In this document: positions 1-24,917 of the stretch, in pieces | Layout of the letters: every line of letters begins with the position of its first letter | Numbering within the stretch: the stretch's first letter is position 1 | IMG/VR virus record: IMGVR_UViG_2571042636_000001 | Location: 1-25,417 of that record | Strand: one strand, 5' to 3' | Length of the DNA stretch: 25,417 nt | From: a virus | Taxonomy: Duplodnaviria > Heunggongvirae > Uroviricota > Caudoviricetes | Translations under genes and position numbers: made by a program | Notes under the pieces: generated by a model | What the model was told of the DNA's origin: nothing | What the model saw: only the letters and a program-made list of their open reading frames with translations | The model's database searches: none

Positions 1-84
1 CTCACACAGCGAACCGTGCAGCATCCAGATGATGAGGATTGCCGTTACGCAGAACGTAATGGCCGTAAGCGATTTTTGCGACAT
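1..84 (-). CDS. hok: Hok/Gef-family small membrane toxin, N-terminal part; the gene runs off the left edge of the window
   Basis: Reverse-complement of 1-84 translates from ATG (complement of 82-84) as MSQKSLTAITFCVTAILIIWMLHGSLCE: a short polar N-terminus, one hydrophobic helix, then the S-L-C-E motif typical of Hok/Gef toxins. An AAGGAG Shine-Dalgarno (complement of 93-98) lies 8 nt upstream. Family assignment is from memory of Hok/Gef sequences, not a search. Confidence 0.7.
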   Translation of the reverse strand, partial: MSQKSLTAITFCVTAILIIWMLHGSLCE

Positions 85-92
85 AGCGCTTG

Positions 93-152
93 CTCCTTTT
101 TCAGGGAGGCGCTAACCTATCACTTGTCTAGGGTAGATGGTTAGGGCCTCGG
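93..152 (-). promoter_or_regulatory. Structured hok mRNA leader: Shine-Dalgarno plus an imperfect 12-bp inverted repeat just upstream
   Basis: On the plus strand, 106-117 (gaggcgctaacc) and 139-150 (ggttagggcctc) are inverted repeats with one mismatch and a 21-nt spacer, directly 5' of the hok ribosome-binding site in mRNA sense. hok-family mRNAs are known for extensive leader structure and antisense control; the antisense RNA itself was not resolved. Confidence 0.35.
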
Positions 153-344
153 TTAAACAAAAATGTTTTCCGGGGCCTTTCCACATTCGGCCTTCAGGTA
201 TTCCCTCCAGCCATCAGCCGAAAGGCACCCGCGCGAATTCTAGCCTGGTTTTTTCCCTTGTTTCAATCCGTTGAGGCCTGTCAGCCTTTTGATATAAAAT
301 TCCCGACCGTAGACATTATTCAGTCACGCATTTGATACATGCTT

Positions 345-371
345 CCGCCGGCGTTCGCGCCGGTTTTTTTT
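345..371 (+). terminator. Rho-independent terminator (GC stem, TTCG loop, run of 8 T)
   Basis: CCGGCG-TTCG-CGCCGG followed by TTTTTTTT read directly on the plus strand. The upstream transcript it serves is not identified. Confidence 0.55.
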
Positions 372-850
372 CGCCCTGTTGCTGTGTAGATCGTCATGCG
401 TGATCGAGGCGCGGTATTGATCCTTTTTTCAGTTTAATTTTGACTCTTAATTTTACACAGGCCGCGCCGCGTCTGGCTTCGTTGTTTGACGATTTTTTGA
501 TGCGATCCTTTCGTGATCGTTTCTCGTCTCGCGTAAAGTATGAAAACTCTTTTAATATCATGCGGTTTTATTGCTCCTGCCATTTGTGCGATCGTAAAAA
601 CCACTCTGAAAACTGCAAAAAATTTCAAAGCGTGAAATTTCAGATCTTCGCTTTTCCCTTAGTTACTGCGCGGGCTGGCTGTCATTTTTGCACGGCAGAA
701 AACTGAAAAACTGTTTCGACACAAAACCCGCGGGTTGGAGGGGGTAGCGCGGTTTACGTCACCTCACGCTTTACGTCACGCCGTTTGCGCGGTGTGCGCA
801 TACAGCGCCAGAATGGCACGCAGAACGATTAATCAGGTGGCAGATATGAA

Positions 851-878
851 AACGCACGGCCGGGACCGTGCGTTGCGT
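851..878 (-). terminator. Candidate intrinsic terminator ending the late tail operon
   Basis: 9-bp inverted repeat 851-859 / 866-874 (aacgcacgg / ccgtgcgtt) with a 6-nt loop; on the minus-strand RNA it is followed by a short U-rich tract, about 40 nt downstream of the stop of the 913-2610 gene. Confidence 0.45.
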
Positions 879-912
879 GATGGGGCGTTTATGTGGCTTT
901 TATGTCTGGTGT

Positions 913-2610
913 TCAGGCGATAATGTCGCCGTATTTTTCGCGCAGGCTCGTCGCCTGCAGGGCATCTGCGGCAAGTTCGCTGCTGTTCATTGGTGCGCCA
1001 GTGTTGCTATGGGTGTGGTTTGCTGTATGTGTGGCCAGTAATTGAATCAGATCCAGAATATCGATCAGCAACGTCAGCAGGTTAAGCCCTGACTTTTCCC
1101 GCGAGCCGCCGCGACCAATAAATACTGTCGGAGCGGTAAACTCCAGACCGCCGTCCGCTCTGCATGTTCTGCGGCCTCCCACGTTTTCGGTGAGGTCATG
1201 CTCAATGGTGGATATCGCCCCTTTGAGTTGAGTCAGCAAATCCTGCGCTACCATCTGGATATGCTCACCGGCTGCGATCGCATAATTGCCGGTAGTAAGG
1301 TGTTCTGTCTGGCCTGTCATCAGTTTGCTGGTACCAAGAACACTGGTTATGTCGTTTGCTTGGACTGTTGTTGTTCTGGTTGTTGTTGTGCGTTCTTCCT
1401 GATCGCTGTTAATGGTTCGCCTGGCTGAATGCTCCCTGATTTGCTGGTCGGTTTCTCTGTGCCAGCTTCCGTCAGTCGTGACGCGCTGAAACACTTCTGC
1501 GCGCTGTTGCTGCAGCTGTTCGCCGGGCTTTACATCAGGCAGGTTATGGCCTGCGGGTAAGATTTGCCTGATGACAGGTTTATCCGGTCGTCCTTCAATG
1601 TTGGATATTTCCACGATGGTGCCAGCCGGCGGGTAGGCAAAACATCCCGCCTCGCTACCAGCCATCGGGACGGGGAGTGGTACTGCCGGATAAACAGGCG
1701 TATCGCTTTTATCGTTGCCGTTCTCATCAAGCAGTTGCACATCGACGGCGTAGCGTGGGCGGAAACTGTCGGCAACATCGCCCAGGGTGACGGATTCCGT
1801 TGGGGCAATGACGCGCGCCAGCCTGGTATGTAGAGTACCGCTGGCCAGTTCCGGGAACTGTGTTTCCATCTGTCTGCGTAATGGTGATTTGGAAACAGGG
1901 CTACCCGTGGTGGTAAGGCGTTCCCATGTCAGGGTCATTTTCTCGTTGTTGAGGGCTACACGGGTAATGCGCCCGGCTGGAAGGTTCACGCCCGGTCGCA
2001 CAGTTTCCATAAACATGATGTCGATGCTGTTTCCGCCGCTTTGCCCGAGTGTGTACTGTTGCGGAATATCCGGCATGGTAATACTGGCAAACCGTGAATC
2101 CGATGCGCTTCCCACAAATACGGAACCGTCCGGCATTGGATGCCAGACGTAATCGCTGATACTGAATGCTCGCCCCAGCTGGCTAAGCAGTTGTGTTCCG
2201 CTGCCGCTGTGGGTGATGTAAGGTGTCGGAGTACCGACGTAATCCGCGTCTGGCGTGATGAAAACGATGCCGCTTTGTTTACCCAGATTATCGAGTACAT
2301 CCCGTAACGTTGGATGTTGCATGGAGCAGGGGAAATCAAAATCCAGCACGGCAGCTGCTTCACGGATAAAAAGGCGGCGTGAGCCATTTTCGGCGGGTTG
2401 ATCGCGTTCAATGTAGCCGGAGAAATAGCGCCATGCCTCACCATTACGGCCGAGATCAATTTGTATCATTGCGCCGGCAAGACTTTTTTTGGGTGGCAGA
2501 TTATTAACAGAAATGAAACCACGACCGGCAGCATTCAGGGTAAGAACAAGGCTGATATCGGCAATTTCCGCCAGCTCGCCATTAATCATACAGCGTTGGA
2601 TTAATTTCAT
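913..2610 (-). CDS. Putative baseplate central spike/hub protein (gpV / Mu gp45-like OB-fold region, histidine-rich C-terminal tip), 565 aa
   Basis: ATG at complement of 2608-2610 with a strong GAAGGAGGAAGG ribosome-binding site, overlapping the upstream stop (ATGA). The mid-region RYAVDVQLLDENG...PVYPAVPLPVPMAGSEAGCFAYPPAGTIVEISNIEGRPDKPVIRQILP fits the spike OB-fold pattern (G-x-V-x-V-x-F-x-x-G-D with flanking prolines). The C-terminus LLATHTANHTHSNTG carries an H-x-H type motif like metal-binding spike tips. Assignment is by motif recognition only. Confidence 0.45.
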   Translation of the reverse strand: MKLIQRCMINGELAEIADISLVLTLNAAGRGFISVNNLPPKKSLAGAMIQIDLGRNGEAWRYFSGYIERDQPAENGSRRLFIREAAAVLDFDFPCSMQHPTLRDVLDNLGKQSGIVFITPDADYVGTPTPYITHSGSGTQLLSQLGRAFSISDYVWHPMPDGSVFVGSASDSRFASITMPDIPQQYTLGQSGGNSIDIMFMETVRPGVNLPAGRITRVALNNEKMTLTWERLTTTGSPVSKSPLRRQMETQFPELASGTLHTRLARVIAPTESVTLGDVADSFRPRYAVDVQLLDENGNDKSDTPVYPAVPLPVPMAGSEAGCFAYPPAGTIVEISNIEGRPDKPVIRQILPAGHNLPDVKPGEQLQQQRAEVFQRVTTDGSWHRETDQQIREHSARRTINSDQEERTTTTRTTTVQANDITSVLGTSKLMTGQTEHLTTGNYAIAAGEHIQMVAQDLLTQLKGAISTIEHDLTENVGGRRTCRADGGLEFTAPTVFIGRGGSREKSGLNLLTLLIDILDLIQLLATHTANHTHSNTGAPMNSSELAADALQATSLREKYGDIIA

Positions 2611-3182
2611 GTTTTCCCTTCCTCCTTCACGCTCCCGATGCCAATCCAGTCCAGACCGGAGCCAATACCATCATTGATATTTTTCCAGAAAGTCTCCTGG
2701 GTATTCATTCCTTTATCCGGTACCTGCTCACTGCCGTTCTGTGTCTGCTGCTTTGCGATTGTTTTCTGTGAGCCACTGCGTGCCGATGCTTTTTCCGGCA
2801 CGCTTAATTTTTCCCTGAGGGTAAAGGTGACCTGCCAGTGCATCTTGCCCTGTTGTTCCGTGGCATCGATGCCGCCCGAAAAAACACCCTGTCGCATATT
2901 AATCGCCTTAGCAGTAGCGTTGGCGATGCGGTATGTTTTTTTGGCTCCGTTGCTTTCTGTTGCCTCCGCAAGCTGAAAAATACGGGTCAAAATAGCTTCA
3001 TCGTTAAAATCAATAATCCCCGACACGCGCAGCTCTTTGGCCTTGTTTCCCTGCTGGGCGCTCGTGGTGCTGGTTGATTGTCCGGACATATCTTTGTCCG
3101 GTAGTTGCATGGTGGCGCTGACGGTGATGTTGCGCAGCAGAATGGCTTCCCCGTCAAGCGCAAGGACAATCATCTGGGTCAT
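2607..3182 (-). CDS. Hypothetical protein, 191 aa, translationally coupled to the spike-like gene
   Basis: ATG at complement of 3180-3182 with an AAGGGA ribosome-binding site; its stop overlaps the downstream start. It sits in the late operon between the second tail fibre and the spike-like gene. No family recognised. Confidence 0.5.
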   Translation of the reverse strand: MTQMIVLALDGEAILLRNITVSATMQLPDKDMSGQSTSTTSAQQGNKAKELRVSGIIDFNDEAILTRIFQLAEATESNGAKKTYRIANATAKAINMRQGVFSGGIDATEQQGKMHWQVTFTLREKLSVPEKASARSGSQKTIAKQQTQNGSEQVPDKGMNTQETFWKNINDGIGSGLDWIGIGSVKEEGKT

Positions 3183-3876
3183 GTAGTGTTTCCCTTAGTG
3201 ATGAGAGATTATCGCCGACGAACAGCATCACAGCTGTAAAAACCCATTCGGGGTGTGGGATGTTTTTTTGTATCAGCACTGCGGCCTGGCTAAGGGCTCC
3301 CTTGTGGCAAAAGCGCCACACCGGGCAAAATTTTTGCCGGAGTGCGGCCTGCTGATCAGCGATTTCCTGTAAGGCTTTATCTCTCGCATTCATGAACTGA
3401 CGCAGTGATGATGACAATGTTTCCGGTGATGTGACGGCAGGAGTGGCTGCCTGTGCAATGGTTGCCGCCAGCGACATGCTGCGAGTGGTCTGTGTCGATA
3501 GCATTATCGGTTCCGGAAGTGATGTTACCGGTCTGGCGGGGATTTGCATTCTGCTGATGGCCAGTGAAAACTGGCTGGAGATCATGCGGGACATTCGTCC
3601 CACCTCTGGTAACGGAAATGCGCCTGAAAATTGCCTGGCGAGTGATAAAAACTCGCCAGCAGACGGGGCGCAAAATAACAGCGCCACAACGTCTTTTTCT
3701 GTGTTTTCTGTCAGATAAGGTAAAAGCGCGGATACAGCATTATCCGGGCTGAGGTAACGCCCTGATGGTGTAATGTTTCCCGTATTTTCTGACCATGGGT
3801 GGAGGCAAACCATTGAACAGGTAATAGCTATGGGGGCTGGTCGCAAAACAGAGCGTATCCATGTTGAATTGTTCAT
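3154..3876 (-). CDS. Hypothetical protein, 240 aa, immediately downstream of the second tail fibre
   Basis: ATG at complement of 3874-3876, preceded by AGGAAG 6 nt upstream and 24 nt after the fibre-2 stop. The protein is Ser/Thr/Ala/Pro-rich and lacks the usual tail-fibre-assembly C-terminal domain. No family recognised. Confidence 0.45.
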   Translation of the reverse strand: MNNSTWIRSVLRPAPIAITCSMVCLHPWSENTGNITPSGRYLSPDNAVSALLPYLTENTEKDVVALLFCAPSAGEFLSLARQFSGAFPLPEVGRMSRMISSQFSLAISRMQIPARPVTSLPEPIMLSTQTTRSMSLAATIAQAATPAVTSPETLSSSLRQFMNARDKALQEIADQQAALRQKFCPVWRFCHKGALSQAAVLIQKNIPHPEWVFTAVMLFVGDNLSSLRETLHDPDDCPCA

Positions 3877-3900
3877 TTGTTCTTCCTGTGTGTCCGGATA

Positions 3901-5457
3901 TTACCCCATTCCGTTCTGGCGTAATGTTGTTCCCGCAAATATTTTTGCCACCACAATACAGGGAAGAGGTCCATTTTTTGCGCTGGCTGTCTCCTCCAGT
4001 GTCGATGTATCCAGTGCATAGTAAGGTGTGTCTGGCATCACCACCCGTATTCTTACTGTTATTGTGCTCGCGGTAGCCGAGACAGAACCGACAAAATACT
4101 GAGCAGGAATGTATTGTCGGTTCTGATTCATGTAGAGATAACGTGGTTCGAGCAGAGCAGAAACAGCGATACCCACTCCTCCAACAGAGGATTTCCTGAC
4201 AGGATTAGATACATCCAGTTCCATAGCATAAATACGTGAACCATCCGGCAGACTTTTAAATGAATCCAGGTTGCTGTTCAGGGTACTTACAGCCACCTTT
4301 GGAATGACCGGATGAGCGCCATCAACAAATAAGTCTCCGGATTGTTGTCTGGACAGTAAATTGGTCGGCGCAGAAGAAATTTCGGGACCCTCTGGTGAAG
4401 TGGTGTCAAGAGATTCCATCTGTTTGCGAACAAAGGCCACACTGGCAATTTCATTACCTGCTGCATCATCCGGCGGTGTTGGTGTAGTCGGCTTTCCTGT
4501 GAATTCCGGGCTTTCCAGAGGAGCCCTTGTTTCAATAAGTTTCCTGAGTGCAACCTCGTTTACTTTCAGGTTTTCCCAGCCAGTCAGCCAGCCATTACCA
4601 GTGGACCAGTAACGGTTGTAATAAATATTGCCATTAATGCCGTAGAAAATAATGGCCTTTGCTGTATGTAACGGAAGTGGTGGGTTATGGTTTGCTTCCA
4701 GCCAGCGGATACTTATCACCCCCTGAAAAACAATGCCGGGAAGTACACCGTTTGCCCCATCCACATAATATTCTCCTGGCTCCACATATCTTGCCCATGC
4801 CAGAAAATCAGCTTCAGATTTAAACCTGACGGCCTCCCCCGGAATAAACCTGTGACCAAAACCAAATGCACCAGGTGTCGCCAGACGACCTTCAGAACGG
4901 TCACGGATACCATTTTGAGGTTCCATTGTGGCCGCTTTTTTTAGCCCGAGATTATCGCGTGATTCCTGTTGTGCCTCTTTGCCCTCATCAGCAATTTCTG
5001 ACAGGCGATTAGGTGCTTTCAGTGCTGTTTTCAGTTCCGGAGTGATATCCACCTGCCAGCTCTGCGGAGGGGCCGTGACTTGTGCAGACTGAGCAATGCC
5101 GCTGTATATAATCGTGAAATTACGAATAAGTGACTCGCCTGTTACTTTTTGTCGAACAGGCGTTTTTATTACGCCGCATAGTGTTCCGCTGGCCTGATGG
5201 ATGAGACAAATCCAGTCATAACTGAATGCACAGTCATCAGGAACAACCGCGCTACACACAATATTGTTCGGGCTTAACAGGCCGTAGGTCAGTTCATTCA
5301 CAGCATATGTAATTTTTTCTTCCGGAACGGTATTATCTTCGTGCGTTGGTTCCCGCTCCATCAGGGCAAAAATAATAGTGTCAGGGCGTGCAGGTAAATT
5401 ACTGGCTGTGCATTCAGCAACCCACTTTTCAAATGCTTTCGTCAACAATGCGCTCAT
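3901..5457 (-). CDS. Second tail fibre protein (shares the N-terminal domain of the first fibre, different distal part), 518 aa
   Basis: The first ~150 aa align by eye with fibre 1 (LPARPDTIIFAL vs GKPARPDTFVFAY; TYGLLSPNN vs QYGLLSPNA; FSYDWICLIHQASGTLCGVIKTPVRQK vs FEYNWIGLLNEESGVLCMIAHTPRQQK; WQVDIT vs WQIDFT). It has an internal collar-like motif (TGKPTTPTPPDDAAGNEIASVAFV), and the C-terminal half is unrelated to fibre 1. Confidence 0.7.
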   Translation of the reverse strand: MSALLTKAFEKWVAECTASNLPARPDTIIFALMEREPTHEDNTVPEEKITYAVNELTYGLLSPNNIVCSAVVPDDCAFSYDWICLIHQASGTLCGVIKTPVRQKVTGESLIRNFTIIYSGIAQSAQVTAPPQSWQVDITPELKTALKAPNRLSEIADEGKEAQQESRDNLGLKKAATMEPQNGIRDRSEGRLATPGAFGFGHRFIPGEAVRFKSEADFLAWARYVEPGEYYVDGANGVLPGIVFQGVISIRWLEANHNPPLPLHTAKAIIFYGINGNIYYNRYWSTGNGWLTGWENLKVNEVALRKLIETRAPLESPEFTGKPTTPTPPDDAAGNEIASVAFVRKQMESLDTTSPEGPEISSAPTNLLSRQQSGDLFVDGAHPVIPKVAVSTLNSNLDSFKSLPDGSRIYAMELDVSNPVRKSSVGGVGIAVSALLEPRYLYMNQNRQYIPAQYFVGSVSATASTITVRIRVVMPDTPYYALDTSTLEETASAKNGPLPCIVVAKIFAGTTLRQNGMG

Positions 5458-5463
5458 TACTTC

Positions 5464-6015
5464 TTAATTCTCGCTAATGTTCTGCGGTAATTCTGGCCAT
5501 ACAATCGCGGCATACGATGCTTTATCTGTAACTTGGCTGAATGTCATCTCCCGTAACGTTTTTGTATAAATACGGCAGGCTTTCAGTTTTTCCCTGTCTT
5601 CGTCGCTGATTAATCCCAGCAGCAGGTCTTTTTCCCATTCGCTGGTCATGATGCTGGCCTGTTTTAACAGTGCATCACGCTCATCTTCCGCTTTAAGTTT
5701 GTAGTCGAAGATAAAATTGCCATCGCGGTAAAACCAGTAACCAGGCACGGTAATACGGCGATTAGCGGTAATATCCGGAACTTCAATAACACTGGCGTTA
5801 CGGGGTTCAATGCCTGTCACATCCTTACCGACCCACACCACGCGCCCGTCCCCGGTGTAAACCATTTTTATTGTGTCGCTGGCAAAGTTCTTCTGTTCTT
5901 CATACCAGTTTTTGTCGTCTTCCGAAAAAAGCCAGGTGACACCATATTGTTTTGTCATATGATATTGTTCTGCGGTTTTCGGATTGCCCGCAGTAATATT
6001 TTTTAAATGCAACAT
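5464..6015 (-). CDS. Tail fibre assembly chaperone (P2 gpG-like), 183 aa
   Basis: ATG at complement of 6013-6015, starting 2 nt after the fibre-1 stop. Size and position are canonical for a fibre assembly chaperone directly 3' of a gpH-type fibre gene. Confidence 0.65.
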   Translation of the reverse strand: MLHLKNITAGNPKTAEQYHMTKQYGVTWLFSEDDKNWYEEQKNFASDTIKMVYTGDGRVVWVGKDVTGIEPRNASVIEVPDITANRRITVPGYWFYRDGNFIFDYKLKAEDERDALLKQASIMTSEWEKDLLLGLISDEDREKLKACRIYTKTLREMTFSQVTDKASYAAIVWPELPQNISEN

Positions 6016-6017
6016 TG

Positions 6018-7718
6018 TTAAACACTCGCCACGTTATACCAGGTGCCGTTAATCAGTTTCTGAAGCGGTCGGTAATACACGCCGCCGATGTTATCTGCCG
6101 AATTACTTCCGGTTTCCTGCACATTAATACCAGATAATCCATGGCCTGAAGGTGAGCGAAATGTCCAGGATATCTGGTTACCTCCCGGGTTGTAATACAT
6201 TTCGGAACCATAACGCACATCCTGCACGCCGCCTGTTTTGGTCTGGTAACGGGCATCAAAGTTTCCGTAGTCTGACGGTGTTACTCGCCCGGTAACGTTT
6301 ACAGGTTTATTACTCTGAATGCTGCCACTCTGAAAACGCAACACATGCACGCTATTGGCATAAACATCCAGCAGGCCATCACCATTCTGTTTCAGGCCGG
6401 TATCGTTATCCCCGAAAGCAATTGAGTTTCCGCCCAGCGCATTCTGAACGCCGATACCCAACGCACCGTTAACTTTCGAACCACCGCCAACAGATACTGC
6501 GTGTGACATGGAAACTTCACCCGTCCGCAAATTAATAGTGAACGGACGCAGGGGGCCAATATCGCCATTTTCCCCCTGGTTTTCCTGTGTTGGAATAAGG
6601 TGCAGGCACTCTTCCGAACGACGAAAAATCAGACCAAAGGCTTCGTTGAAAATCCTCAGCGCATTAACACCACGGATTTTCAGTTCCCCGCTCATGGTGT
6701 CGCCGTCACGCTCAACGGCGCCTTTTGCCTTATCCATTGCGGCTTTTACTGCCTTTGATGTGGCGGCGCGGTCTTCTGCGTCGCTGTCGGTGGAGTTGCT
6801 GTACTGCGCAAAGCCTTTCTCCTTCAGTGTTGCGTCCGGATGATGGCGGGATTTTTCGTGCTCTGCCAGTGCATTGCTTTGTTCTTCGTCGGGAGTCTCC
6901 GGGCGCAGGTCCTGTGGGCCGTCTCCTGTCATTTTTGCAAGTGGCGCGACAAAGTGTCGGAAGCCGTTACCGTCTGTATAAGACGCATGTTCCTGGCGGG
7001 CGCAGAACGTAAAAACGGTATTCCATTCGCCGGTAACAAATCCCTGCCAGCTTGCATCAATCCAGAGGGTATCCCCGACCGCAGCCGGCAGGCTGTAAGG
7101 TTCGCGCAGACTGACGCGCAGACCTCCCACATAACCCACGCCGGCGGCAACAGTAGCGGTACCGTCCTGATAGCTGACCTGAAAACCATCCCCCAGAAAA
7201 GCGGCTTCACCGTAGTGATCAAACGCCAGCAGCCGGCGGGCCTCATCCATTCCTGCAAGGCGTGCAGTGAAATCAATCTGCCAGACATCAGCGCTGACAT
7301 CGATATGCATTGCTACGGCTGCGCCGTCAAACTCCATGGAAAATGTGCGGATCAGGTTGTTTCCCTGCACGCCGTTCGCTGTTTTAATTTTTTGCTGACG
7401 AGGTGTGTGTGCAATCATGCAGAGCACGCCGCTTTCTTCGTTCAGCAGACCGATCCAGTTGTATTCGAAGTCGCCGACTGTCGTGTCCAGAATGATGGAA
7501 AACGCGGTCGCGTTCGGCGACAGGAGGCCGTACTGGGTGACCGGCGCACGATACTGAATCATGGATTCATCAGGGAGTATCTCATCGCGGGGGATCTCTG
7601 CGGATTCATCCTGTCCCGGAATATATGCAAAAACAAATGTATCCGGGCGCGCAGGTTTTCCACTGATGATTTGATTTGCGCACCAGTGTTCGTACTGTTC
7701 AGTAATAATCGTGCTCAT
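6018..7718 (-). CDS. Tail fibre protein (P2 gpH-like), 566 aa
   Basis: ATG at complement of 7716-7718, overlapping the upstream stop. It has motifs typical of enterobacterial P2-type fibres (HEKSRHHPDATLKEKGF, TSKAVKAAMD, NALGGNSIAFGDNDTGLKQNGDGLLDVYANS) and the C-terminal LINGTWYNVASV. Confidence 0.8.
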   Translation of the reverse strand: MSTIITEQYEHWCANQIISGKPARPDTFVFAYIPGQDESAEIPRDEILPDESMIQYRAPVTQYGLLSPNATAFSIILDTTVGDFEYNWIGLLNEESGVLCMIAHTPRQQKIKTANGVQGNNLIRTFSMEFDGAAVAMHIDVSADVWQIDFTARLAGMDEARRLLAFDHYGEAAFLGDGFQVSYQDGTATVAAGVGYVGGLRVSLREPYSLPAAVGDTLWIDASWQGFVTGEWNTVFTFCARQEHASYTDGNGFRHFVAPLAKMTGDGPQDLRPETPDEEQSNALAEHEKSRHHPDATLKEKGFAQYSNSTDSDAEDRAATSKAVKAAMDKAKGAVERDGDTMSGELKIRGVNALRIFNEAFGLIFRRSEECLHLIPTQENQGENGDIGPLRPFTINLRTGEVSMSHAVSVGGGSKVNGALGIGVQNALGGNSIAFGDNDTGLKQNGDGLLDVYANSVHVLRFQSGSIQSNKPVNVTGRVTPSDYGNFDARYQTKTGGVQDVRYGSEMYYNPGGNQISWTFRSPSGHGLSGINVQETGSNSADNIGGVYYRPLQKLINGTWYNVASV

Positions 7719-8350
7719 GCTTCATCTGCCTGTAATGTGTAATGTTCCACGGACAGGCCGTAATGTCCTGCCTGTAGCGAAGCGGTTAACCAGATGGTGT
7801 CCTTTCTCACCGTTGCTTCTGCTGTGTGATACCTGTAATGGCCATCGAATGTGCCGGCTGTCAGCCGGGCAGTGGTTGTATTGATTACCTGAAAGAAATA
7901 GCGCCTGCAGGTACGACCATACTGGCGCACGAGCTGCATCATCAGTGCGTTGTTTTCACTTAACTGTGTGTCATTAATACGCAGTAAAATAACGTCCCAG
8001 TCATGCTGCAGTTGCCGTTCCAGTGTTTTAACGTCTCCCACGCTAAGACGCTTAAAGATGCGTTCGAAGCCGGCGCGTTCGCCAGAGTCCTGAGCGTTAA
8101 TAAACGCGTGTTTCACTCTTAAGCGAAATAACGAAACCGGCTCACCTTTAAATCGGGTGATATTGCGCTGATAAGCCAGCAGGTTAAGTAAAGGCTCTGC
8201 GCAGGTGTCGACATCAATCTGCTGTAGTGGCCACGTCAGCCAGCTGTATACCTTTTCCCAGTAGCGATGCGATGAATGTGCCAGCGTTAACGGCTCGCCT
8301 TTATTCATCCAGGTGGGGAGCGGGAATTCAGGGATCTCCGGAAGTTTCAC
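7715..8350 (-). CDS. Baseplate/tail protein (P2 gpI-like), 211 aa
   Basis: GTG start at complement of 8348-8350 with a GGAGGTG ribosome-binding site, overlapping the baseplate-J stop (GTGA). Position between a baseplate-J gene and the tail fibre, and size, match gpI-type proteins. Confidence 0.5.
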   Translation of the reverse strand: MKLPEIPEFPLPTWMNKGEPLTLAHSSHRYWEKVYSWLTWPLQQIDVDTCAEPLLNLLAYQRNITRFKGEPVSLFRLRVKHAFINAQDSGERAGFERIFKRLSVGDVKTLERQLQHDWDVILLRINDTQLSENNALMMQLVRQYGRTCRRYFFQVINTTTARLTAGTFDGHYRYHTAEATVRKDTIWLTASLQAGHYGLSVEHYTLQADEA

Positions 8351-9531
8351 GCGCTCACCTCCACAGTAAGGGATTCCAGACGAGGAACAGCCAGATCACT
8401 GAGAATATCCGGAAGAGAAAATGTAACCGACTCCACCTGTGGAAATACCTGGTGGATCTCTTCGCCCAGTCTGGACATGCTGAAACGGCTGTACGGCCAT
8501 GTTTTCTGAACGTCATAATCGCTGTTTTCGCGAAATGCACAGCGAACCAGATTTTCCACATTGCGCAATAACGTCTGAATTTCCTCATCGCTGAGGTTCA
8601 GCGTTGCATACAACCAGAGTGTCACGGTCAGGGTGTGGCGTGTTTCAGGCATGGAAAAACAGCGCAGATCATCACCGTGTCCGTGATGACCTTCATCGTT
8701 AATGAATGCGTTTACGGCATCAACGAACGGTTCGGATGCGATGCCGGTATCCAGCAGAATGTAAGCATTTGCTGTGCCGGGGCCGCGTGGTGCGTCATGC
8801 AGAAAATAGATGCGGTCGGCACTGATACCGGCAACGCCGGCAATTAACCCCCGGTAAACGGCATCGGTGTGATAAGCGCCGGCAAGATTAAACTGATTGC
8901 GAACACGATCACGCAGCTCGTCATCGCTTTCTTCGTTGGCACCCGGTGTGGTCAGCCAGTTTTCATCGTTCTCAACACCGGCAATACCATCAATCGCCAC
9001 CGGAAGGATGCGGTAATATCCCGGCGCAAGGTTAAAGCCGGCTCCGGCCTGTTCCGCAGAAACATCGATGTTCATGCTGAGTGTTCCTGCCGGAATAACG
9101 GTATCCCTGACAACGGTCAGCGTATAAATCACGCCGTTAATGCGTTCTGTCTGAATCTGCGTACCGGCCGGCACGGTAACTGCGCGATCAATGTCGTTTT
9201 TGGTGAAACGAATCACGCCGGCTGCGTGCGTGGCGGCCTTGCGTTGCAGGTTTACCGCCCAGGCAAAAACATCAACGAATACACCGCTGGCATCAGCCAG
9301 AAACAGGTTTTTCATCACCACATTAACCAGCGCATCTTTCAGCCACATCACGGGTTTTGTGGTGATAGCTGTAATCAGTCGCCAGAACGGTGACATGCGG
9401 GATGTGTTGGTGATAAGCCCTTCGTCTTTGACAATGGCTTCAAATTCAGCGCGCGCCTGTTCTTCTGTTACCGGCATGCCGTTATCAGCCAGAATGCGCT
9501 CGTAATCTGCGGTAGGTTTGCCGTTAATCAT
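8347..9531 (-). CDS. Baseplate J-like protein (P2 gpJ / Mu gp47 family), 394 aa
   Basis: ATG at complement of 9529-9531 overlaps the end of the upstream gene (ATGATTAA); the ORF track's TTG at 9534 is a less likely start. Sequence character (GVIRFTKNDIDRAVTVPAGTQIQTERINGVIYTLTVV...) and position fit the Baseplate_J family. Confidence 0.65.
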   Translation of the reverse strand: MINGKPTADYERILADNGMPVTEEQARAEFEAIVKDEGLITNTSRMSPFWRLITAITTKPVMWLKDALVNVVMKNLFLADASGVFVDVFAWAVNLQRKAATHAAGVIRFTKNDIDRAVTVPAGTQIQTERINGVIYTLTVVRDTVIPAGTLSMNIDVSAEQAGAGFNLAPGYYRILPVAIDGIAGVENDENWLTTPGANEESDDELRDRVRNQFNLAGAYHTDAVYRGLIAGVAGISADRIYFLHDAPRGPGTANAYILLDTGIASEPFVDAVNAFINDEGHHGHGDDLRCFSMPETRHTLTVTLWLYATLNLSDEEIQTLLRNVENLVRCAFRENSDYDVQKTWPYSRFSMSRLGEEIHQVFPQVESVTFSLPDILSDLAVPRLESLTVEVSA

Positions 9532-9874: not shown

Positions 9875-11960
9875 GTAGCTCCATCCACTCGTTGAGGCGG
9901 GCAGGGGATGGATCCTGCACATTGACGTTGACCACGCGACGGGAGTTGTCGATTGTGGTCTGGTTTTCGCTGTTGTTCTGCATTTCTGCCGCAATGCCAC
10001 CAGGCCCCGCACTGATGGCTTTACCGCCGGTTAATACGGAGCCTTCGCCACTTCCTGTGCTTTCTGATGTGCCGATGTTAACGCCGGGGATCATGTTGAG
10101 TTTGTCCACAATCCAGCCCCATGAATCACTGAATGACTGTTTCACCAGTTCCCAGAGGTTACTGAAAATGTTCAGGATGCCGCCCGCGAGATCCTTCAGG
10201 GCATCCAGTGGTGAATGCGTGGAAAAATAGTTAACCAGTGCATTCCAGCCGTCCTGGATTGTGTTCCATGCATTGCCGAACCATGTCCCCATACTGCCGA
10301 CCATTTCAGCCACCCACTGAAAGGCGGCGGTATCCATCAGCGCGGCTTTAATCTCATCCCAGCGGGTGATCAGGAAATAAATGCCCACCCCCAGCGCAGC
10401 CAGTGCCAGGATGATTAATGTGATGGGGCTGAAAAGTAACTGTGTTGCAATAGCAGCTCCGCTGGTGACTGCGGTGTAGATTTTCATTGCTATGCCGGCG
10501 GCACCCAGTGCAACAGAATAAAGCCAGAGTCCGGCGCGCTGTAATTTCAGCAGCGCCAGCTGAATTTTTGCTTTGACGTTGTATGTTCCCATGGCAATGG
10601 ACATGGCCAGATACAGCGCCCTGACCGTTCGGGCAACTACAGTGAATGCCCACATGGTAGCCGTCAGTGTGCGTTTCAGCAGAATGAGAATCTTCAGCGG
10701 CGCAACGGCTGCCAGCCAGACCAGCCGCAGTCCTGTCCAGACAAACTTCGCCACACCCACCATAATGTTGACAACAGCACCCACTGCGGCAATGCCCAGC
10801 AGGGCGGCAGACAGTAAACCAATGGCCCGTGTGATATTGGGATACAGACGTAACCAGGCAACAAAGGATTTACCGCCTTCGTTGCTTTTCTGGATAAACG
10901 GGTACAGAACAGGCAACAACTGCGTGCCAATTTCAATGCGAATGCCGTTAATAATTGCAGCGGCCTGTTCCCATGGATCGGCCATGGCTTGTGCCATTTC
11001 GACAGCCTTATCCATACCTTTAATATTGCCCAGCGTGGCGATATTCTTTTCAAGTCCGCCAATGTCCGCATTGAGTAATTTAATCATGGCCACAGCTTCA
11101 TCGGAGCCAAAGGCGCTTTTCAGCAAATCGGAATCAGCCACTTTTGACAGATCACCAAATTTGCCCCTGATAAGTTTCATGATCTCGACAACACTTTTCA
11201 TCGTGCCGTCTTTATTCACGAAATTAAGCCCCAGCTTTTTCTGGGCGCTGCCTACTGCGGCAAGAAATGCTTTGTACTTTGTCCCGGCCTCGCTGCCACT
11301 CATGGTGGCCTGCAGTTGTCCCAGCACAGCGAACTGTTCAGCCGCATCAATACCGGCCGCTTTTGCACTGGCACCCAGCGTGGTGAACGCCGCTGACATG
11401 TTATCGCCGGTTGTTTTAAACATTTGCACGGCGGTGGCGGTTTGCCCGGCGACCTGCTCCACCCATTTGCTTTTTCCCATGGCATCAGCCTGGTCTTTAA
11501 AGATGCCGTACATGGTGCCCATGTAGGCGGTAATGGTCTGGCTGCTGGATTTGGTTGCTGCTGCCACCGTTGCTGATGCGGTGGTGAAGCGGGACAGCTC
11601 ATCGTCAGTTAACCCGGCAATGGCTGACTGGATGTCGTAAGAAGCACGCACAAAATCCTGCGCAGCCCCGCCGTATTCCATAGTGAAATCAACGGCGGCG
11701 CGGCTGAGTTTACGCAATCCGGACTCTGCGACGCCCAGTGATTTCACCTCACCGAGCGCCCTGTCCATTTCAATGGCTGGCATCAGTGCCCCCTGAATGG
11801 CTGCACCTACTCCCCAGAGCGCAGCGCCTCCGGTAGCAATGTCCCGAAAGGCTCCCCGACTTGTTGCAGCAAATCCCTGAACCTGTCGCCCGGCTGCACG
11901 CAACGGCCTTGTCAGGCGGTCTGTCAGTTCAAGAAGTAATTCAAGGCGCTGTTGTGACAT
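9864..11960 (-). CDS. Tail tape measure protein, 698 aa
   Basis: Long ORF right after the chaperone frameshift pair. It is Ala/Gly-rich and helical in character with central hydrophobic segments, typical of tape measure proteins, and its ATG overlaps the stop of the frameshifted chaperone frame (TAATG). Confidence 0.8.
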   Translation of the reverse strand: MSQQRLELLLELTDRLTRPLRAAGRQVQGFAATSRGAFRDIATGGAALWGVGAAIQGALMPAIEMDRALGEVKSLGVAESGLRKLSRAAVDFTMEYGGAAQDFVRASYDIQSAIAGLTDDELSRFTTASATVAAATKSSSQTITAYMGTMYGIFKDQADAMGKSKWVEQVAGQTATAVQMFKTTGDNMSAAFTTLGASAKAAGIDAAEQFAVLGQLQATMSGSEAGTKYKAFLAAVGSAQKKLGLNFVNKDGTMKSVVEIMKLIRGKFGDLSKVADSDLLKSAFGSDEAVAMIKLLNADIGGLEKNIATLGNIKGMDKAVEMAQAMADPWEQAAAIINGIRIEIGTQLLPVLYPFIQKSNEGGKSFVAWLRLYPNITRAIGLLSAALLGIAAVGAVVNIMVGVAKFVWTGLRLVWLAAVAPLKILILLKRTLTATMWAFTVVARTVRALYLAMSIAMGTYNVKAKIQLALLKLQRAGLWLYSVALGAAGIAMKIYTAVTSGAAIATQLLFSPITLIILALAALGVGIYFLITRWDEIKAALMDTAAFQWVAEMVGSMGTWFGNAWNTIQDGWNALVNYFSTHSPLDALKDLAGGILNIFSNLWELVKQSFSDSWGWIVDKLNMIPGVNIGTSESTGSGEGSVLTGGKAISAGPGGIAAEMQNNSENQTTIDNSRRVVNVNVQDPSPARLNEWMELHAY

Positions 11961-12505: not shown

Positions 12506-12847
12506 TCAGCGCACACCGTCGTGCTCAAGGCTGAAATGATTGCCATCTGCGCGGTTTTTAAAACGACCGCCCCATGAGCCGCCGAGGGATTCCCAGTACT
12601 CGCCCAGTTCGCGGTAAGCCTCTGTGCGGGTCTGGTATTCACCGTTAATAAACAGATTAAAATCCACCGCCAGTCGCTGGCAGTGCAGACTGTTGGTGAT
12701 GCCTGATCCCTTTTGTGCGTTGAGTTTTGCCTGCTCTGGCGTGCGGTACGCCTCACCGAACGTCAGGCCATAACCGCGCTGATGGGCAAACTGGATGAGT
12801 TTTCCGATCATGACGGTAAATTGTTGTTGCTTATCGGAGAGTTTCAT
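12506..12847 (-). CDS. Peptidase M15-family endolysin (L-alanyl-D-glutamate peptidase-like), 113 aa
   Basis: ATG at complement of 12845-12847 with an AAGGAG ribosome-binding site. It has the metal-ligand pattern H-x6-D (SLHCQRLAVDF) and a C-terminal DGNHFSLEH, characteristic of M15 cell-wall peptidases. Confidence 0.7.
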   Translation of the reverse strand: MKLSDKQQQFTVMIGKLIQFAHQRGYGLTFGEAYRTPEQAKLNAQKGSGITNSLHCQRLAVDFNLFINGEYQTRTEAYRELGEYWESLGGSWGGRFKNRADGNHFSLEHDGVR

Positions 12848-12956
12848 TTTTGCTCCTTACGGGGTTGTTGAGGTTTACGCAACCAGCGCCACAACGCCCG
12901 GATAATTTTCCAGACAATGGCAGCGGCTTTCTGATCCCTGCGGGACTGCATTGCGG

Positions 12957-13253
12957 TTACTCCTCTTTGTTCTCTTTTTCGTCCAGCTTCCGGCGCATGT
13001 GGCGCAGGAAGATTTCCACAATCTGGTAACCGGCAACGCCCATTGCGGTACCTGCGCCGGCAATGGCCAGTGGGTCAAGATTCGGGTAGCGAACCAGCAG
13101 GGCGGCGGCAGAAACACCCAGCGCGCTCCCCAGCAGGGTTCGGCCCACAAACAACCGCAACGTAATCGGTTCTGCGCCAGCCAGCACCCGACTTGCGGCA
13201 GCGATTCCGCCCAGAATGCCCAGGGTGATGATGGTGCGTTCATGCTCCTGCAT
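12957..13253 (-). CDS. Putative holin, 98 aa, three predicted transmembrane segments and a charged C-terminus
   Basis: ATG at complement of 13251-13253. Three hydrophobic stretches (IITLGILGGIAAASRVLAG, LRLFVGRTLLGSALGVSAAALLV, LAIAGAGTAMGVAGYQIVEIFL) are followed by the tail RHMRRKLDEKENKEE, and the gene lies just upstream of the M15 peptidase. Confidence 0.55.
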   Translation of the reverse strand: MQEHERTIITLGILGGIAAASRVLAGAEPITLRLFVGRTLLGSALGVSAAALLVRYPNLDPLAIAGAGTAMGVAGYQIVEIFLRHMRRKLDEKENKEE

Positions 13254-19535: not shown

Positions 19536-21323
19536 ATGGCTTATTCTGATGAAGTTATTGCCGCAGCAAAATCACTCTATCTAAAAAGGCACACCCCAAA
19601 AGAAATACAAAAGAAGCTCGGACTGAACAGCCCGCGAATTGTTTATTATTGGGCGACAAAGTTTGAGTGGTACACACAGCTTAATACTGAAGGCGTGGAG
19701 GATGTTATCGCCCGGCGTCTCGCTGTACTGGCGGAGCGTGACCATAAAACGCCGGAAGAACACGATGAACTCGATCGCCTGATTGGCCACCACGTCAAAC
19801 TGATGTCGGTCAGAAACAAGCACGCGGAGCGAATGGCTGAGATTGCACGAATGGGTGCGGACATTCCCCAGCCTGGTCGTTATGGAAAAGAAGAACGCGG
19901 AGAAAAAGGTGCAGGTAAGAAAGAGCGCCCCCGTAAAGCTAATGACGTTTCCGGGCTGACTGCTGAAAGTTTTGAGCCGTTTACCAAAAAACTGTTCGCT
20001 TATCAGTTGCACCTGCGTGAAAACAAATTCCGTCGTGTGCGCAACCTGCTTAAATCTCGCCAGATTGGGGCGACGTATTACTTCGCGTTTGAGGCGTTTG
20101 AAGATGCGGTATTAACCGGCGACACACAGATATTTTTATCGGCATCAAAACGTCAGGCCGAAGTGTTCCGCACCTATATCGTTAAGATTGCACAGACGGA
20201 ATTTGGCATTCCCATTAAAGGCAACCCGGTTAAGTTAAGTAATCTTGCTGAACTGTATTTTCTGGCGACCAACAGCAATACGGCGCAGTCAAACAGCGGC
20301 CACCTGTACATTGACGAATATCTGTGGATCCCCGCTTTTCGTCGCCTCAATGAAGTGGCGTCCGGTATGGCCACCCACTCGCACTGGCGCATTACTTACT
20401 TCTCCACGCCGTCATCCAAAACACACCAGGGCTACCCGTTCTGGTCTGGTGATGAATGGCGCAAAGGCGACCCGAAACGAAAAGGGGTTGAGTTCCCGTC
20501 CTTTGATGAACTGCGCGATGGCGGGCGCGAATGCCCGGATGGTCAGTGGCGCTATGTGGTGACAATGGAAGATGCCATTGCCGGCGGCTTTAACCTTGCC
20601 AACATTGACGAGCTGCGCGAGCGATATAACGAAACAGCATTCAATATGTTGTATATGTGCGTGTTTGTGGATGACAAAGAGAGCGTCTTTAAATTCGATG
20701 ACCTCGTGCGCTGTGGCGTTGATGTCAGTACGTGGGAGGATTTTCACCCGGAAGATGCCATGCCATTTGGAAACCGTGAAGTGTGGGGTGGCTTTGACCC
20801 TGCGCGCTCCGGCGATAACGCCACGTTTGTGGTGCTGGCACCGCCGCTGGTTGCGGTCGAACGATTCCGCGTGCTGGAAAAACACCACTGGCGCAGCATG
20901 TCATTCCAGTTTATGGCAGAGCGTATCCGCAGCATTAAGGCGCGCTATAACATGACGTTTATCGGCATTGATGTTACCGGGCTTGGCTATGGTGTCTTTG
21001 AGCTGGTTCAGGGATTTGCCCGCCGTGAAACAGTGGCCATTCATTACAGCGTTGAATCCAAAAACCGCCTGGTGATGAAGATGCTGGATCTGATTTACGC
21101 CAACCGTATTGAGTGGGATGAAGAAGCCACAGATATTCCGGCATCGTTCCTGGCCATTCGTCAGGAATCCACCAACAGTGGCAATAAAGTCACTTTCACC
21201 GCCGAACGTAGCGAAGAAACCGGGCACGCAGACATCTTCTTTGCCATTGCCCATGCCGCAAGTAATGAACCCCTGAACTATAAGCACAGGCGCAAATCAA
21301 CATGGATCCTGCCAGATGAGTAA
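19536..21323 (+). CDS. Terminase large (ATPase) subunit, P2 gpP-like, 595 aa
   Basis: ATG at 19536-19538; the size matches gpP and the gene is followed by, and overlaps, the portal gene, as in the P2 P-Q operon. Confidence 0.8.
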   Translation: MAYSDEVIAAAKSLYLKRHTPKEIQKKLGLNSPRIVYYWATKFEWYTQLNTEGVEDVIARRLAVLAERDHKTPEEHDELDRLIGHHVKLMSVRNKHAERMAEIARMGADIPQPGRYGKEERGEKGAGKKERPRKANDVSGLTAESFEPFTKKLFAYQLHLRENKFRRVRNLLKSRQIGATYYFAFEAFEDAVLTGDTQIFLSASKRQAEVFRTYIVKIAQTEFGIPIKGNPVKLSNLAELYFLATNSNTAQSNSGHLYIDEYLWIPAFRRLNEVASGMATHSHWRITYFSTPSSKTHQGYPFWSGDEWRKGDPKRKGVEFPSFDELRDGGRECPDGQWRYVVTMEDAIAGGFNLANIDELRERYNETAFNMLYMCVFVDDKESVFKFDDLVRCGVDVSTWEDFHPEDAMPFGNREVWGGFDPARSGDNATFVVLAPPLVAVERFRVLEKHHWRSMSFQFMAERIRSIKARYNMTFIGIDVTGLGYGVFELVQGFARRETVAIHYSVESKNRLVMKMLDLIYANRIEWDEEATDIPASFLAIRQESTNSGNKVTFTAERSEETGHADIFFAIAHAASNEPLNYKHRRKSTWILPDE

Positions 21324-23499: not shown

Positions 23500-23811
23500 T
23501 TATTCGGGAAATAACGCCCGGATATTCCCGGCCATCTGGCTGGTTATCTGTGTGGTTGGCGTTGGAGGTGTCGCAGGGCGTTCTGCTCTGGTTTGTGTCA
23601 CTGATAACGCTTCATCATCAGCCCATGCAGCCAGTCGGTAAGCCTCTGCCGGATTCATTTTCAGAAGTGCCAGCCCGGCCAGAAAAGCCACGCGTTGGCC
23701 GCTTTTGCGGGCTTCTGGTGTAAGGCTGTCCAGCCAGGCGCATGCTTCGCCTTCGTTCTTGACGGCGGCGGGCTTCAGATAGAAACTTATCCGTCTGGTT
23801 GGTGTCGTCAT
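23500..23811 (-). CDS. parR: ParR (StbB) centromere-binding adaptor of a type II partition system, 103 aa
   Basis: ATG at complement of 23809-23811, overlapping the end of parM. Sequence RRISFYLKPAAVKNEGEACAWLDSLTPEARKSGQRVAFLAGLALLKMNPAEAY aligns by eye with plasmid R1 ParR as recalled from memory. The longer 148-aa ORF in the track is an upstream run-on. Confidence 0.8.
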   Translation of the reverse strand: MTTPTRRISFYLKPAAVKNEGEACAWLDSLTPEARKSGQRVAFLAGLALLKMNPAEAYRLAAWADDEALSVTQTRAERPATPPTPTTQITSQMAGNIRALFPE

Positions 23812-23815
23812 TGGT

Positions 23816-24775
23816 TTACTCCTTGTCCATTGCGTACAGCCCATTAACCAGAGCAAACTGTGGCACCCCGTCCGCGATGAAAGTCGCATTAACTCCGCAG
23901 GCTTCGCGGATAGCGGGTGCCACAATCTCCGCCCCGCCACCGACAACCATCACCCGCCCGTAACCCGAAAAACCCGCCAGCGCGCGGATCACGCGTTGTT
24001 TCAGTGTCTCTTCCTTTTCACGAATAACCGCCATCAGGCTGTCGTAATGCGCGCCATTGTGGATGTGCTGGCGCAGCCAGGCTTCATCATGGCGATGTTC
24101 AATAATGGTATTAGCGATATGGTGACTGGTGCGCATACCGTTGGTGGCCATCACCGACAGCACGGCATCGGCCATCAGGGAAACGCCTACGTGTGGATCG
24201 CAAAACACCTGGCTGATACCTGCCAGTTGCCCCTGAACCTTTGCCACATCCAGCGTGGTTCCGCCTAAATCAACAATAAGCAGGGATTCAAACGGACTCA
24301 TATCAGCCAGTGCTTTAAAGCCAGCCGGAATGGATTCAGGCATAACCCGCACGTTACGGATAGTGAATGCCTCACCGTTCTGGTACTCCACCGGGCGCAT
24401 AACGTTCGCTTTTTTGCGGTTGATGTTGGCCATATCCGGCTGTGCGTTTGTATCGAAATACTCGCTCAGTGGCAGGGTGACAACCACATCCACCTCCTGT
24501 GGTGTGATGCCTGATTTGACCAGCGCGTGGTGAATGGCGATTACATTCACATCGCTGTACTGGTATTGCGTGTCGGTCGTCTGGATAAAGCGATCGCTGA
24601 CCGGATCAAAACCATAGCGCACGCCATCAAGCATGTAGTTCGCAGGCTGCGAGCCACCGAACGGCGCAGACCATTCCGACTTGAAGCTGTTCGGGCTGAT
24701 GGCGTTGCGGCATTCGCCGTTCTCAGTCCATGCCAGCTTGATGTTGGTGGAGCCGTCGTCGATACAAATTTTCAT
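23816..24775 (-). CDS. parM: ParM (StbA) actin-like segregation ATPase, 319 aa
   Basis: ATG at complement of 24773-24775 with an AAGGAAAA ribosome-binding site. The N-terminus MKICIDDGSTNIKLAW, and ISPNSFK, YSDVNVIAIHHAL, VMPESIPAG, LIVDLGGTTLD, FSGY..VMVVGGGAEI and LVNGLY match the actin-fold phosphate and adenosine motifs of plasmid R1 ParM. Confidence 0.9.
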   Translation of the reverse strand: MKICIDDGSTNIKLAWTENGECRNAISPNSFKSEWSAPFGGSQPANYMLDGVRYGFDPVSDRFIQTTDTQYQYSDVNVIAIHHALVKSGITPQEVDVVVTLPLSEYFDTNAQPDMANINRKKANVMRPVEYQNGEAFTIRNVRVMPESIPAGFKALADMSPFESLLIVDLGGTTLDVAKVQGQLAGISQVFCDPHVGVSLMADAVLSVMATNGMRTSHHIANTIIEHRHDEAWLRQHIHNGAHYDSLMAVIREKEETLKQRVIRALAGFSGYGRVMVVGGGAEIVAPAIREACGVNATFIADGVPQFALVNGLYAMDKE

Positions 24776-24806: not shown

Positions 24807-24917
24807 TTTACGGGATTTTTAAATCCCGCTTTCGCCTGTTTTGTGCGCGCTTCATATATCGCGGCGCGTTTTTTGCTCATTTACGGGATTTGTGAATCCC
24901 GTTTTTGTCTGTTTTTT
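24807..24917. repeat. parC-like centromere/promoter region: two ~39-bp direct repeats, each with a CGGGATTT..AAATCCCG inverted-repeat core
   Basis: Repeat 1 is about 24807-24845 (tttacgggatttttaaatcccgctttcgcctgttttgtg) and repeat 2 about 24879-24917 (tttacgggatttgtgaatcccgtttttgtctgttttttg). They flank a TATAT-containing spacer immediately upstream of parM. Confidence 0.65.

Follow-up and report, generated by a model that had tools for sequence, protein, structure and literature searches.

A fused hub-spike protein in the probable baseplate-centre gene trio that ends the late operon of an HP1-subgroup P2-like prophage

The 25,417-nucleotide stretch of viral DNA analysed here (positions 1 to 25,417 of IMG/VR record IMGVR_UViG_2571042636_000001, hereafter the window) holds in full the late region of a P2-like (Peduoviridae) prophage of the HP1 subgroup, and its late tail operon ends in three minus-strand open reading frames (ORFs) encoding proteins of 240, 191 and 565 amino acids. 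Our analysis indicates that this trio very probably encodes the centre of the baseplate, namely a homologue of phage HP1 orf33, a tube initiator and a single-chain hub-spike. The 565-residue protein belongs over its whole length to a phage baseplate family, its modelled N-terminal domain has the fold of contractile-tail hubs, its C-terminal part carries an invariant HxH motif, and in Pseudoalteromonas phage ACA1 two genes, one for the hub and one for the spike, correspond to this single one. The arrangement is the standard one and has already been noted for HP1-type phages: the gpD and gpV homologues of HP1 are recorded as fused, and its orf34 as tentatively gpU-like, in Table S1 (footnote d for the fusion) of PMC10612066 (2023), so the novelty implied by an earlier note on this DNA, written from the letters alone, does not stand.

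The gene structure underlying this interpretation is as that note had described it. Immediately after the second tail-fibre gene (3901-5457) come the ORFs of the 240-residue (3154-3876), 191-residue (2607-3182) and 565-residue (913-2610, including the stop codon at 913-915) proteins. A gap of 24 nucleotides separates the fibre stop codon from the first of these, which is preceded by an AGGAAG ribosome-binding site; the 240- and 191-residue ORFs overlap by 29 nucleotides, with AAGGGA 5' of the second ATG, and the 191- and 565-residue ORFs join in an ATGA overlap with GGAGGAAGGG just ahead of it. The translational coupling claimed for the trio is real at these last two junctions. All three are genuine genes, as judged from matches to phrog_1677/31292, PF25759 (E 2.5e-53) and phrog_2258 (E 1e-232), and the number of database homologues per gene runs from dozens up to more than 1000.

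The 565-residue protein is a single-chain hub and spike with a fusion junction at about residue 235. Family membership is unambiguous, as phrog_2258, annotated 'baseplate protein', matches residues 1-565 across profile positions 1-544 of 544 with an E value of 1.3e-232, and the protein is 46% identical to gp01 of Seongnamvirus ESSI-2 and 43% identical to HP2 orf35; in tblastn searches it covers the genes of ESSI-2-type phages by 100%. An AlphaFold2 (AF2) monomer model built on an alignment of 30 homologues was confident at residues 1-240 (predicted local distance difference test, pLDDT, ~76-95) and again at residues 511-560. Searching the model against the PDB with Foldseek returned whole-length matches to the fused spikes Alg8 (7aef_q, 8.7e-17), Pvc8, VgrG and Afp8, together with N-terminal matches of about 300 residues to Mu gp44, MuSo2, E217 gp41, the pyocin R2 hub and T4 gp27. 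For entries that contain only a hub the E values were 1.1e-10 for 1wru (Mu gp44), ~1e-10 for 3cdd (MuSo2), 6e-9 for 8eon_E, 1e-4 for 6u5h_A (pyocin R2) and 5e-5 for 1k28_D. The hub part, of the gpD/gp27 type, thus corresponds to residues 1 to ~235 (positions 1906-2610). Structure prediction, which the earlier note had named as a check, therefore revealed both a hub fold and matches to fused spikes, and the guess that hub and spike had been fused and relocated is borne out by the whole-length VgrG-type matches, the N-terminal hub matches, the split genes of ACA1 and the place of the gene at the operon end. The observation that no separate gpD-type hub gene exists likewise holds within the window, where the hub lies inside the 565-residue protein, which at 2.7 times the length of P2 gpV (211 residues) is indeed more than twice its size.

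Beyond the hub, the chain continues into a linker and a putative OB-fold of the gpV/gp5/VgrG type (residues ~241-350, positions 1561-1890). The gpV/gp5-like OB-fold signature previously picked out here is a real signal that, by sequence, stays below threshold, with PF04717 matching residues 310-347 at an E value of 0.019 and 15.7 bits against a cut-off of 23.8. VgrG models cover residues 312-363 (TIGR01646, E 3e-4), profile matches to the VgrG OB-fold in the PDB span residues 312-346, and phrog_4011, a family of stand-alone spikes of ~315 residues, matches the C-terminal 320 residues from residue 243 onwards. A phmmer search of the PDB with the single sequence gave only weak stretches of VgrG. 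The AF2 model reaches a pLDDT of only 48-75 in the OB-fold region, and the whole-length Foldseek alignments to VgrG and Pvc8 take the region in. Further along, the Thr/Gly-rich residues ~395-500 (positions 1111-1428) presumably form a triple-stranded beta-helix, a reading consistent with a match between the family profile (positions 408-498) and the C-terminal beta-helix of T4 gp5 (4jiv_A, E 0.005) and with an E value of 0.053 for PF22178 (Gp5_trimer_C).

The C-terminal apex (residues 509-565, positions 916-1086) consists in the AF2 model of two helices, a strongly hydrophobic one at 511-531 and an amphipathic one at 543-564, both at a pLDDT of 82-89, with an HxH motif in the loop between them. 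This motif is the end of an HTANHTH stretch (residues 528-534) that had been proposed as a metal-binding tip. Among the 30 homologues, which are 47-87% identical, H532 and H534 (codons at 1009-1017) are the only invariant histidines of this stretch and H528 varies; the HxH is also kept in HP2 orf35 (THTHRG) and in ACA1 gp49 (NHGHTS). In P2 gpV, whose C-terminal end reads ...LHTHKHPGDSGGTTGSPL and carries H197-K-H199, H197 and H199 from three chains form an octahedral iron cage within an apex of residues 191-211, and a C-terminal HxH is an accepted diagnostic of the spike Apex domain (bioRxiv 10.1101/2023.02.25.529910); the iron site has also been seen in the P2 virion (bioRxiv 10.64898/2026.09.14.750843). 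The 565-residue protein carries this gpV-type HxH, and it is reasonable to predict from the conserved sequence that its apex is a metal-binding tip like that of gpV. To call the tip histidine-rich beyond the HxH was an overstatement, because the protein has 13 histidines in total and only three of them fall within the last 50 residues.

The gene upstream supplies a second component of the baseplate centre. PF25759, 'HP1 ORF34 baseplate complex protein', matches residues 2-174 of the 191-residue protein (profile positions 2-176 of 180) with 180.8 bits against a cut-off of 27 and an E value of 2.5e-53, and is carried by 75 of the 75 listed homologues. In the structural model, residues 4-124 form a core with the tail-tube fold, mostly at a pLDDT of 89-94 except for a low-confidence loop at 27-46, beyond which the chain becomes disordered before a terminal helix, weakly predicted, at 161-179. 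The fold is most similar to that of the initiators that sit next to the hub, the class of gpU, the pyocin ripcord, gp48/54 and the N-terminal domain of Mu gp43, and by modelled fold we assign the protein to the gpU/ripcord class of tube initiators. The statement that no gpU-type gene was present is consequently wrong in function, understandable as it was from the sequence, and of the roles once suggested for this protein (hub part, chaperone or cargo) its fold and its Pfam family leave the first. In the P2 baseplate, six gpU subunits form the tube initiator on a trimer of gpD, a gpV trimer carries an iron site, and the C-terminal helix of gpU touches the wedge (bioRxiv 10.64898/2026.09.14.750843). 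The features of the 191-residue protein suit the part played there by gpU.

These features can be assembled into a working model of the baseplate centre. Three copies of the 565-residue protein would form a gpD/gp27-like hub through residues 1 to ~235 and continue through the OB-folds into an intertwined beta-helix and the apex, where a metal ion may be held by three HxH motifs (H532 and H534), as it is in P2 gpV. The resulting spike would act as a rigid needle that sheath contraction pushes through the outer membrane. Six copies of the 191-residue protein would sit on the trimeric hub as an adaptor from three-fold to six-fold symmetry, and their ring would start the tail tube polymerising around the tape measure. 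Contact with the wedge proteins is probably made by the terminal helix and the flexible tail at the C-terminus, as it is by the gpU helix and the pyocin ripcord. For the 240-residue protein, the likeliest roles are those of an assembly factor or of a virion protein associated with the baseplate in low copy number.

Several observations weigh against parts of this model. Both PF04717 and PF22178 score below threshold in the 565-residue protein, and the region assigned to the beta-helix has no confident model, with a pLDDT below 50 and residues 353-500 disordered; such disorder is expected because a monomer was modelled for what would be an intertwined trimer, and the same low confidence is why the beta-helix is proposed here only as presumed. 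The predicted helix-loop-helix apex, with 31 residues past the HxH, is unlike the 21-residue apex of gpV, and the HxH does not lie in a short apex (~20 residues) at the extreme C-terminus. There is no detectable sequence link to P2: comparisons of the family profiles with single sequences of P2 gpU, gpD and gpV by hhalign gave probabilities below 1%, a result that is uninformative and not negative because the number of effective sequences in the profiles (Neff) was ~2.3 and the templates were single sequences. Finally, Vibrio phage yong1 has no orf33 homologue at the corresponding position, between its fibre gene and its orf34 homologue, so that orf33 is not a universal core part, and the detection of an orf33-type protein in virions amounts to two spectra from one distant phage.

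The last of these points concerns the 240-residue protein, a putative minor virion protein or accessory of the baseplate. It matches phrog_1677 (E 2.8e-38) and phrog_31292 (E 6e-72), and its family comprises 73 cluster representatives among 1.84 billion proteins, every one of them stand-alone and ~210-300 residues long, with few conserved positions (W6, YLSPxNA at 41-47 and P207). HP2 orf33 aligns within the family alignment, and ACA1 gp46 matches the family profile with an hhalign probability of 96.5% (E 7.6e-10). We found no relative of the protein in Pfam, NCBIfam, the PDB or PADLOC, a Pfam scan of 49 diverse family members taken singly gave scattered single chance matches only, and the family profile found nothing meaningful in the PDB. 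A phmmer match to NDUEG3 in the PDB is spurious, and profile comparison shows that orf33 and orf34 are not paralogues. A possible metal site was dropped because its Cys and His residues are conserved in close homologues only and not across the wider family. It is a real possibility, somewhat short of even, that this protein is not structural at all: it may assist assembly of the hub-spike or the fibres as a non-virion chaperone, or be a lineage-specific accessory or ejected cargo. Such a role would fit a protein with no fold or family assignment, a small and fast-evolving family with only three invariant columns, the lack of a homologue next to the orf34 homologue of yong1, and the thinness of the evidence from ACA1, where gp46 was found in purified virions by two spectra covering 6% of its length (PMC10612066, Table S2). 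Pulling the other way, the gene is translationally coupled to orf34 through the 29-nucleotide overlap, in HP2, ESSI-2 and ACA1 it is linked to the hub genes and not to those for fibres, gp46 did appear in ACA1 virions while other non-structural proteins were not, and none of the three proteins of the trio, orf33 included, matched a defence system in PADLOC. With low confidence, we regard orf33 as an accessory of the baseplate present in few copies, which may replace a missing gpX, with an assembly factor nearly as likely.

That suggestion bears on a bolder reading, in which the baseplate centre of the HP1 subgroup differs from that of P2 in having a spike cap resembling a six-helix bundle that holds the metal cage, and orf33 as a new component replacing gpX. 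The AF2 model of the apex would give the 565-residue protein a helical cap instead of the short gpV apex, and three chains, each contributing a hydrophobic helix, the HxH loop and a return helix, may build a type of spike tip that would be undescribed. No LysM glue protein of the gpX type was found in the window. The idea that orf33 is itself such a glue protein, of the P2 gpX/T4 gp53 class, was rejected, as LysM and Phage_tail_X domains are absent from the 49 family members scanned with Pfam and no PDB match was found. Taken as a whole, this bolder reading strikes us as rather unlikely.

For the 191-residue protein, the alternative is that it represents another component with the tube fold, such as a second tube protein, a distal tail protein or a tube terminator. 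PF06995, the gpU family, gives no match at E values up to 0.1, the orf34 family profile compared with P2 gpU yields an hhalign probability of 0.1%, neither phmmer searches with the single sequence nor searches with the orf34 profile found anything meaningful in the PDB, and the homology of orf34 to gpU has been called 'uncertain' at 15% identity (PMC10612066). The protein is thus not a member of the gpU sequence family. Its closest structural resemblance is to the hub-proximal initiators, and we consider a different tube-fold role improbable.

Assignment of the hub could in turn be questioned by supposing that the 565-residue protein is only a large spike, that its N-terminal extension is no hub and that the true hub lies elsewhere in the prophage. 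The hub part of ~235 residues is far shorter than P2 gpD (387 residues), and the protein has no match to gpD at the level of sequence. Against this, the well-modelled N-terminal domain matches hub proteins with Foldseek E values of 1e-8 to 1e-12 and has a homologue in ACA1 gp48, a protein classified as gpD-like, and no other hub candidate is present in the late operon or past its end. The search for other hub, spike or gpU candidates found none within the window, and beyond the operon end a copy of the region in Escherichia coli strain CP131 revealed no separate gpD/gpV pair. A hub encoded elsewhere is accordingly very improbable, and a fused hub-spike remains the preferred reading.

The genomic context identifies the element as a phage. 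Besides P2-type head and neck genes (portal, large and small terminase, scaffold, capsid, gpL, gpR and gpS) and a lysis cassette, the window holds a sheath gene of the HP1 orf23 type (DUF2586), a tube gene of the HP1 orf24 type, the tail assembly chaperone, tape measure and DUF2590 genes, J-like and I-like wedge proteins, two fibres and one assembly protein. That the locus might instead be a tailocin, an extracellular contractile injection system (eCIS) or an element resembling a type VI secretion system (T6SS) is barely credible: the best whole-length structural matches of the 565-residue protein are indeed eCIS and T6SS spikes and some E. coli copies are truncated remnants, but capsid, scaffold, portal, terminase and head-completion genes of the P2/HP1 type stand in normal order in the window, and the nearest relatives are the isolated phages ESSI-2, HP2, phiO18P and K139.

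Those relatives are distant, the largest protein being only ~46% identical, and the orf33-orf34-orf35 triplet occurs in the same order and place in HP2 and Cronobacter phage ESSI-2. Megablast of positions 913-3876 against the phage collection gave no nucleotide-level match, and a search at the protein level was therefore needed. Copies that are nearly identical sit in E. coli chromosomes, and matching nucleotide sequences were present in 64 of 5426 complete E. coli genomes, 48 of which cover at least 80% of the region, and protein homologues are widespread among Enterobacterales prophages. In RefSeq the E. coli copies are nearly all labelled as three hypothetical proteins. Strain CP131 carries a copy of window positions 1-5629 at 98.3% identity, followed beyond the operon end by Hok/Gef and then host genes as far as copA. 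The prophage in this strain is a remnant (locus 24421-28812) that retains the hub trio along with the fibre genes and is cut through by an IS1A element, and its RefSeq annotation places a spurious partial 'shikimate transporter' pseudogene within the second fibre gene.

Past the end of the late operon, 39 nucleotides beyond the stop codon of the 565-residue gene, lies a terminator-like hairpin with a short U tract (positions 849-874, minus strand). Noticed on visual inspection, it folds at -16.1 kcal/mol (z -2.83 relative to shuffled sequences); it is the probable end of the late operon, and a weak candidate because a scan for consensus terminators did not report it. Window positions 1-912 contain no long ORF. 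At CP131 locus 19944-20084 the Hok/Gef toxin gene overlaps window positions ~1-84, with a serine acetyltransferase gene and host copA beyond it, and this Hok/Gef region is a prophage boundary or a small cargo region. Antisense ORFs occur on the plus strand of the window, for example at 1787-2152 and 2638-2976, and are most likely not genes; the ESSI-2 RefSeq record lists 'hypothetical proteins' antisense to its orf33/orf34 and orf35 homologues (8290-8652 and 10111-10599).

Other parts of the window hold features of interest in their own right. Two tail-collar fibre genes, encoding 518 and 566 residues, flank a single lambda-gpK-type assembly protein (3901-5457, 5464-6015 and 6018-7718, minus strand). 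No separate chaperone gene accompanies the second fibre, whose last 160 residues match a different family, phrog_33169; as far as the sequence goes, this suggests a swapped receptor-binding tip. The lysis genes (12506-13243, minus strand) lie between the tube and tail-chaperone genes, as in HP1 and HP2 and unlike P2, and comprise a Peptidase_M15_4 endolysin and, upstream, a 122-residue ORF without a family match that is probably a holin. At the far end of the window, a ParM-type actin-like partition ATPase (StbA_N, E 1e-82; ParM C-terminal domain, E 1e-68) adjoins a small 'partition protein' (phrog_2515), the genes occupying positions 23500-24775 and 24852-25397 on the minus strand, and both border a gpA-like replication initiator ('nicking at origin', phrog_91/6857) at its C-terminal end. 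In a prophage of the HP1 type, partition machinery of this plasmid kind could point to a phage-plasmid lifestyle or to a stabilisation module.

The practical gain from this work lies mainly in annotation, as the trio can now be labelled an orf33-family protein, a tube initiator and a fused hub-spike; the understanding of contractile tails is unchanged by it.

Comparison with known systems places the trio closest to HP1/HP2 orf33-orf34-orf35 and ESSI-2 gp05-gp03-gp01, which agree with it in gene order, in closing the late operon behind the fibre and fibre-assembly genes and in protein size (255, 186 and 533 residues in HP2). The orf35 proteins are 43-46% identical, PF25759 and phrog_1677 are common to all, and the HxH is kept. 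Differences are the two fibre genes upstream in the window and the divergence of HP2 orf35 past residue ~452 in tblastn alignments. P2 has the parts and the architecture proposed for the trio, with a trimeric hub, six initiators above it and a spike of OB-fold, beta-helix and HxH, and gpV shares with the 565-residue protein a Gly/Pro-rich stretch after the C-terminal HxH. In P2, however, the genes are separate and divided between two operons, V being first in VWJIHG and U and D last in FI-FII-E-T-U-D, the hub has 387 residues as against ~235, and 12 residues follow the HxH in gpV as against 31. Vibrio phage XM1, which is not HP1-like and has its hub and spike as separate proteins, was discarded as a structural reference. 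For the tube initiator, resemblance to pyocin R2 ripcord PA0626, the Mu gp43 N-terminal domain, XM1 gp11 and Pam3 gp17 is at the level of fold only, with identities of 7-14%, and the 191-residue protein lacks a LysM domain and has a shorter tail than the ripcord or Mu gp43.

The single-chain design itself is shared with VgrG of the T6SS and with Afp8, Pvc8 and Alg8 of the eCIS, which combine in one polypeptide a hub with the OB-fold and beta-helix that are predicted for the 565-residue protein (Foldseek E 1e-12 to 9e-17). These spikes carry a separate PAAR-type tip protein and no HxH, whereas the apex of the 565-residue protein is built in; identity is 10-14%, and the 565-residue protein belongs to a DNA-packaging phage. 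Among phages, ACA1 gp46-gp47-gp48-gp49 are homologous to the trio, with gp47 the orf34 homologue at 35% identity. The gpD-like gp48 (234 residues) matches residues 62-229 of the 565-residue protein at 37% identity (E 8e-34), and gp49, a 'cell puncturing device' of 317 residues, matches residues 241-564 with the HxH aligned. Two genes in ACA1 therefore correspond to one fused gene in the window and in HP1. In yong1 (vB_ValM-yong1, 1940-4036) the hub-spike is apparently split over three consecutive ORFs of 229, 223 and 65 residues, and the fibre gene is followed directly by the orf34 homologue (45% identity), which carries the wrong label 'tail-collar fiber protein'. Fused in HP1, ESSI-2 and the window, split in two in ACA1 and apparently in three in yong1, the hub-spike module offers a view of VgrG-like single-chain spikes arising and breaking up.

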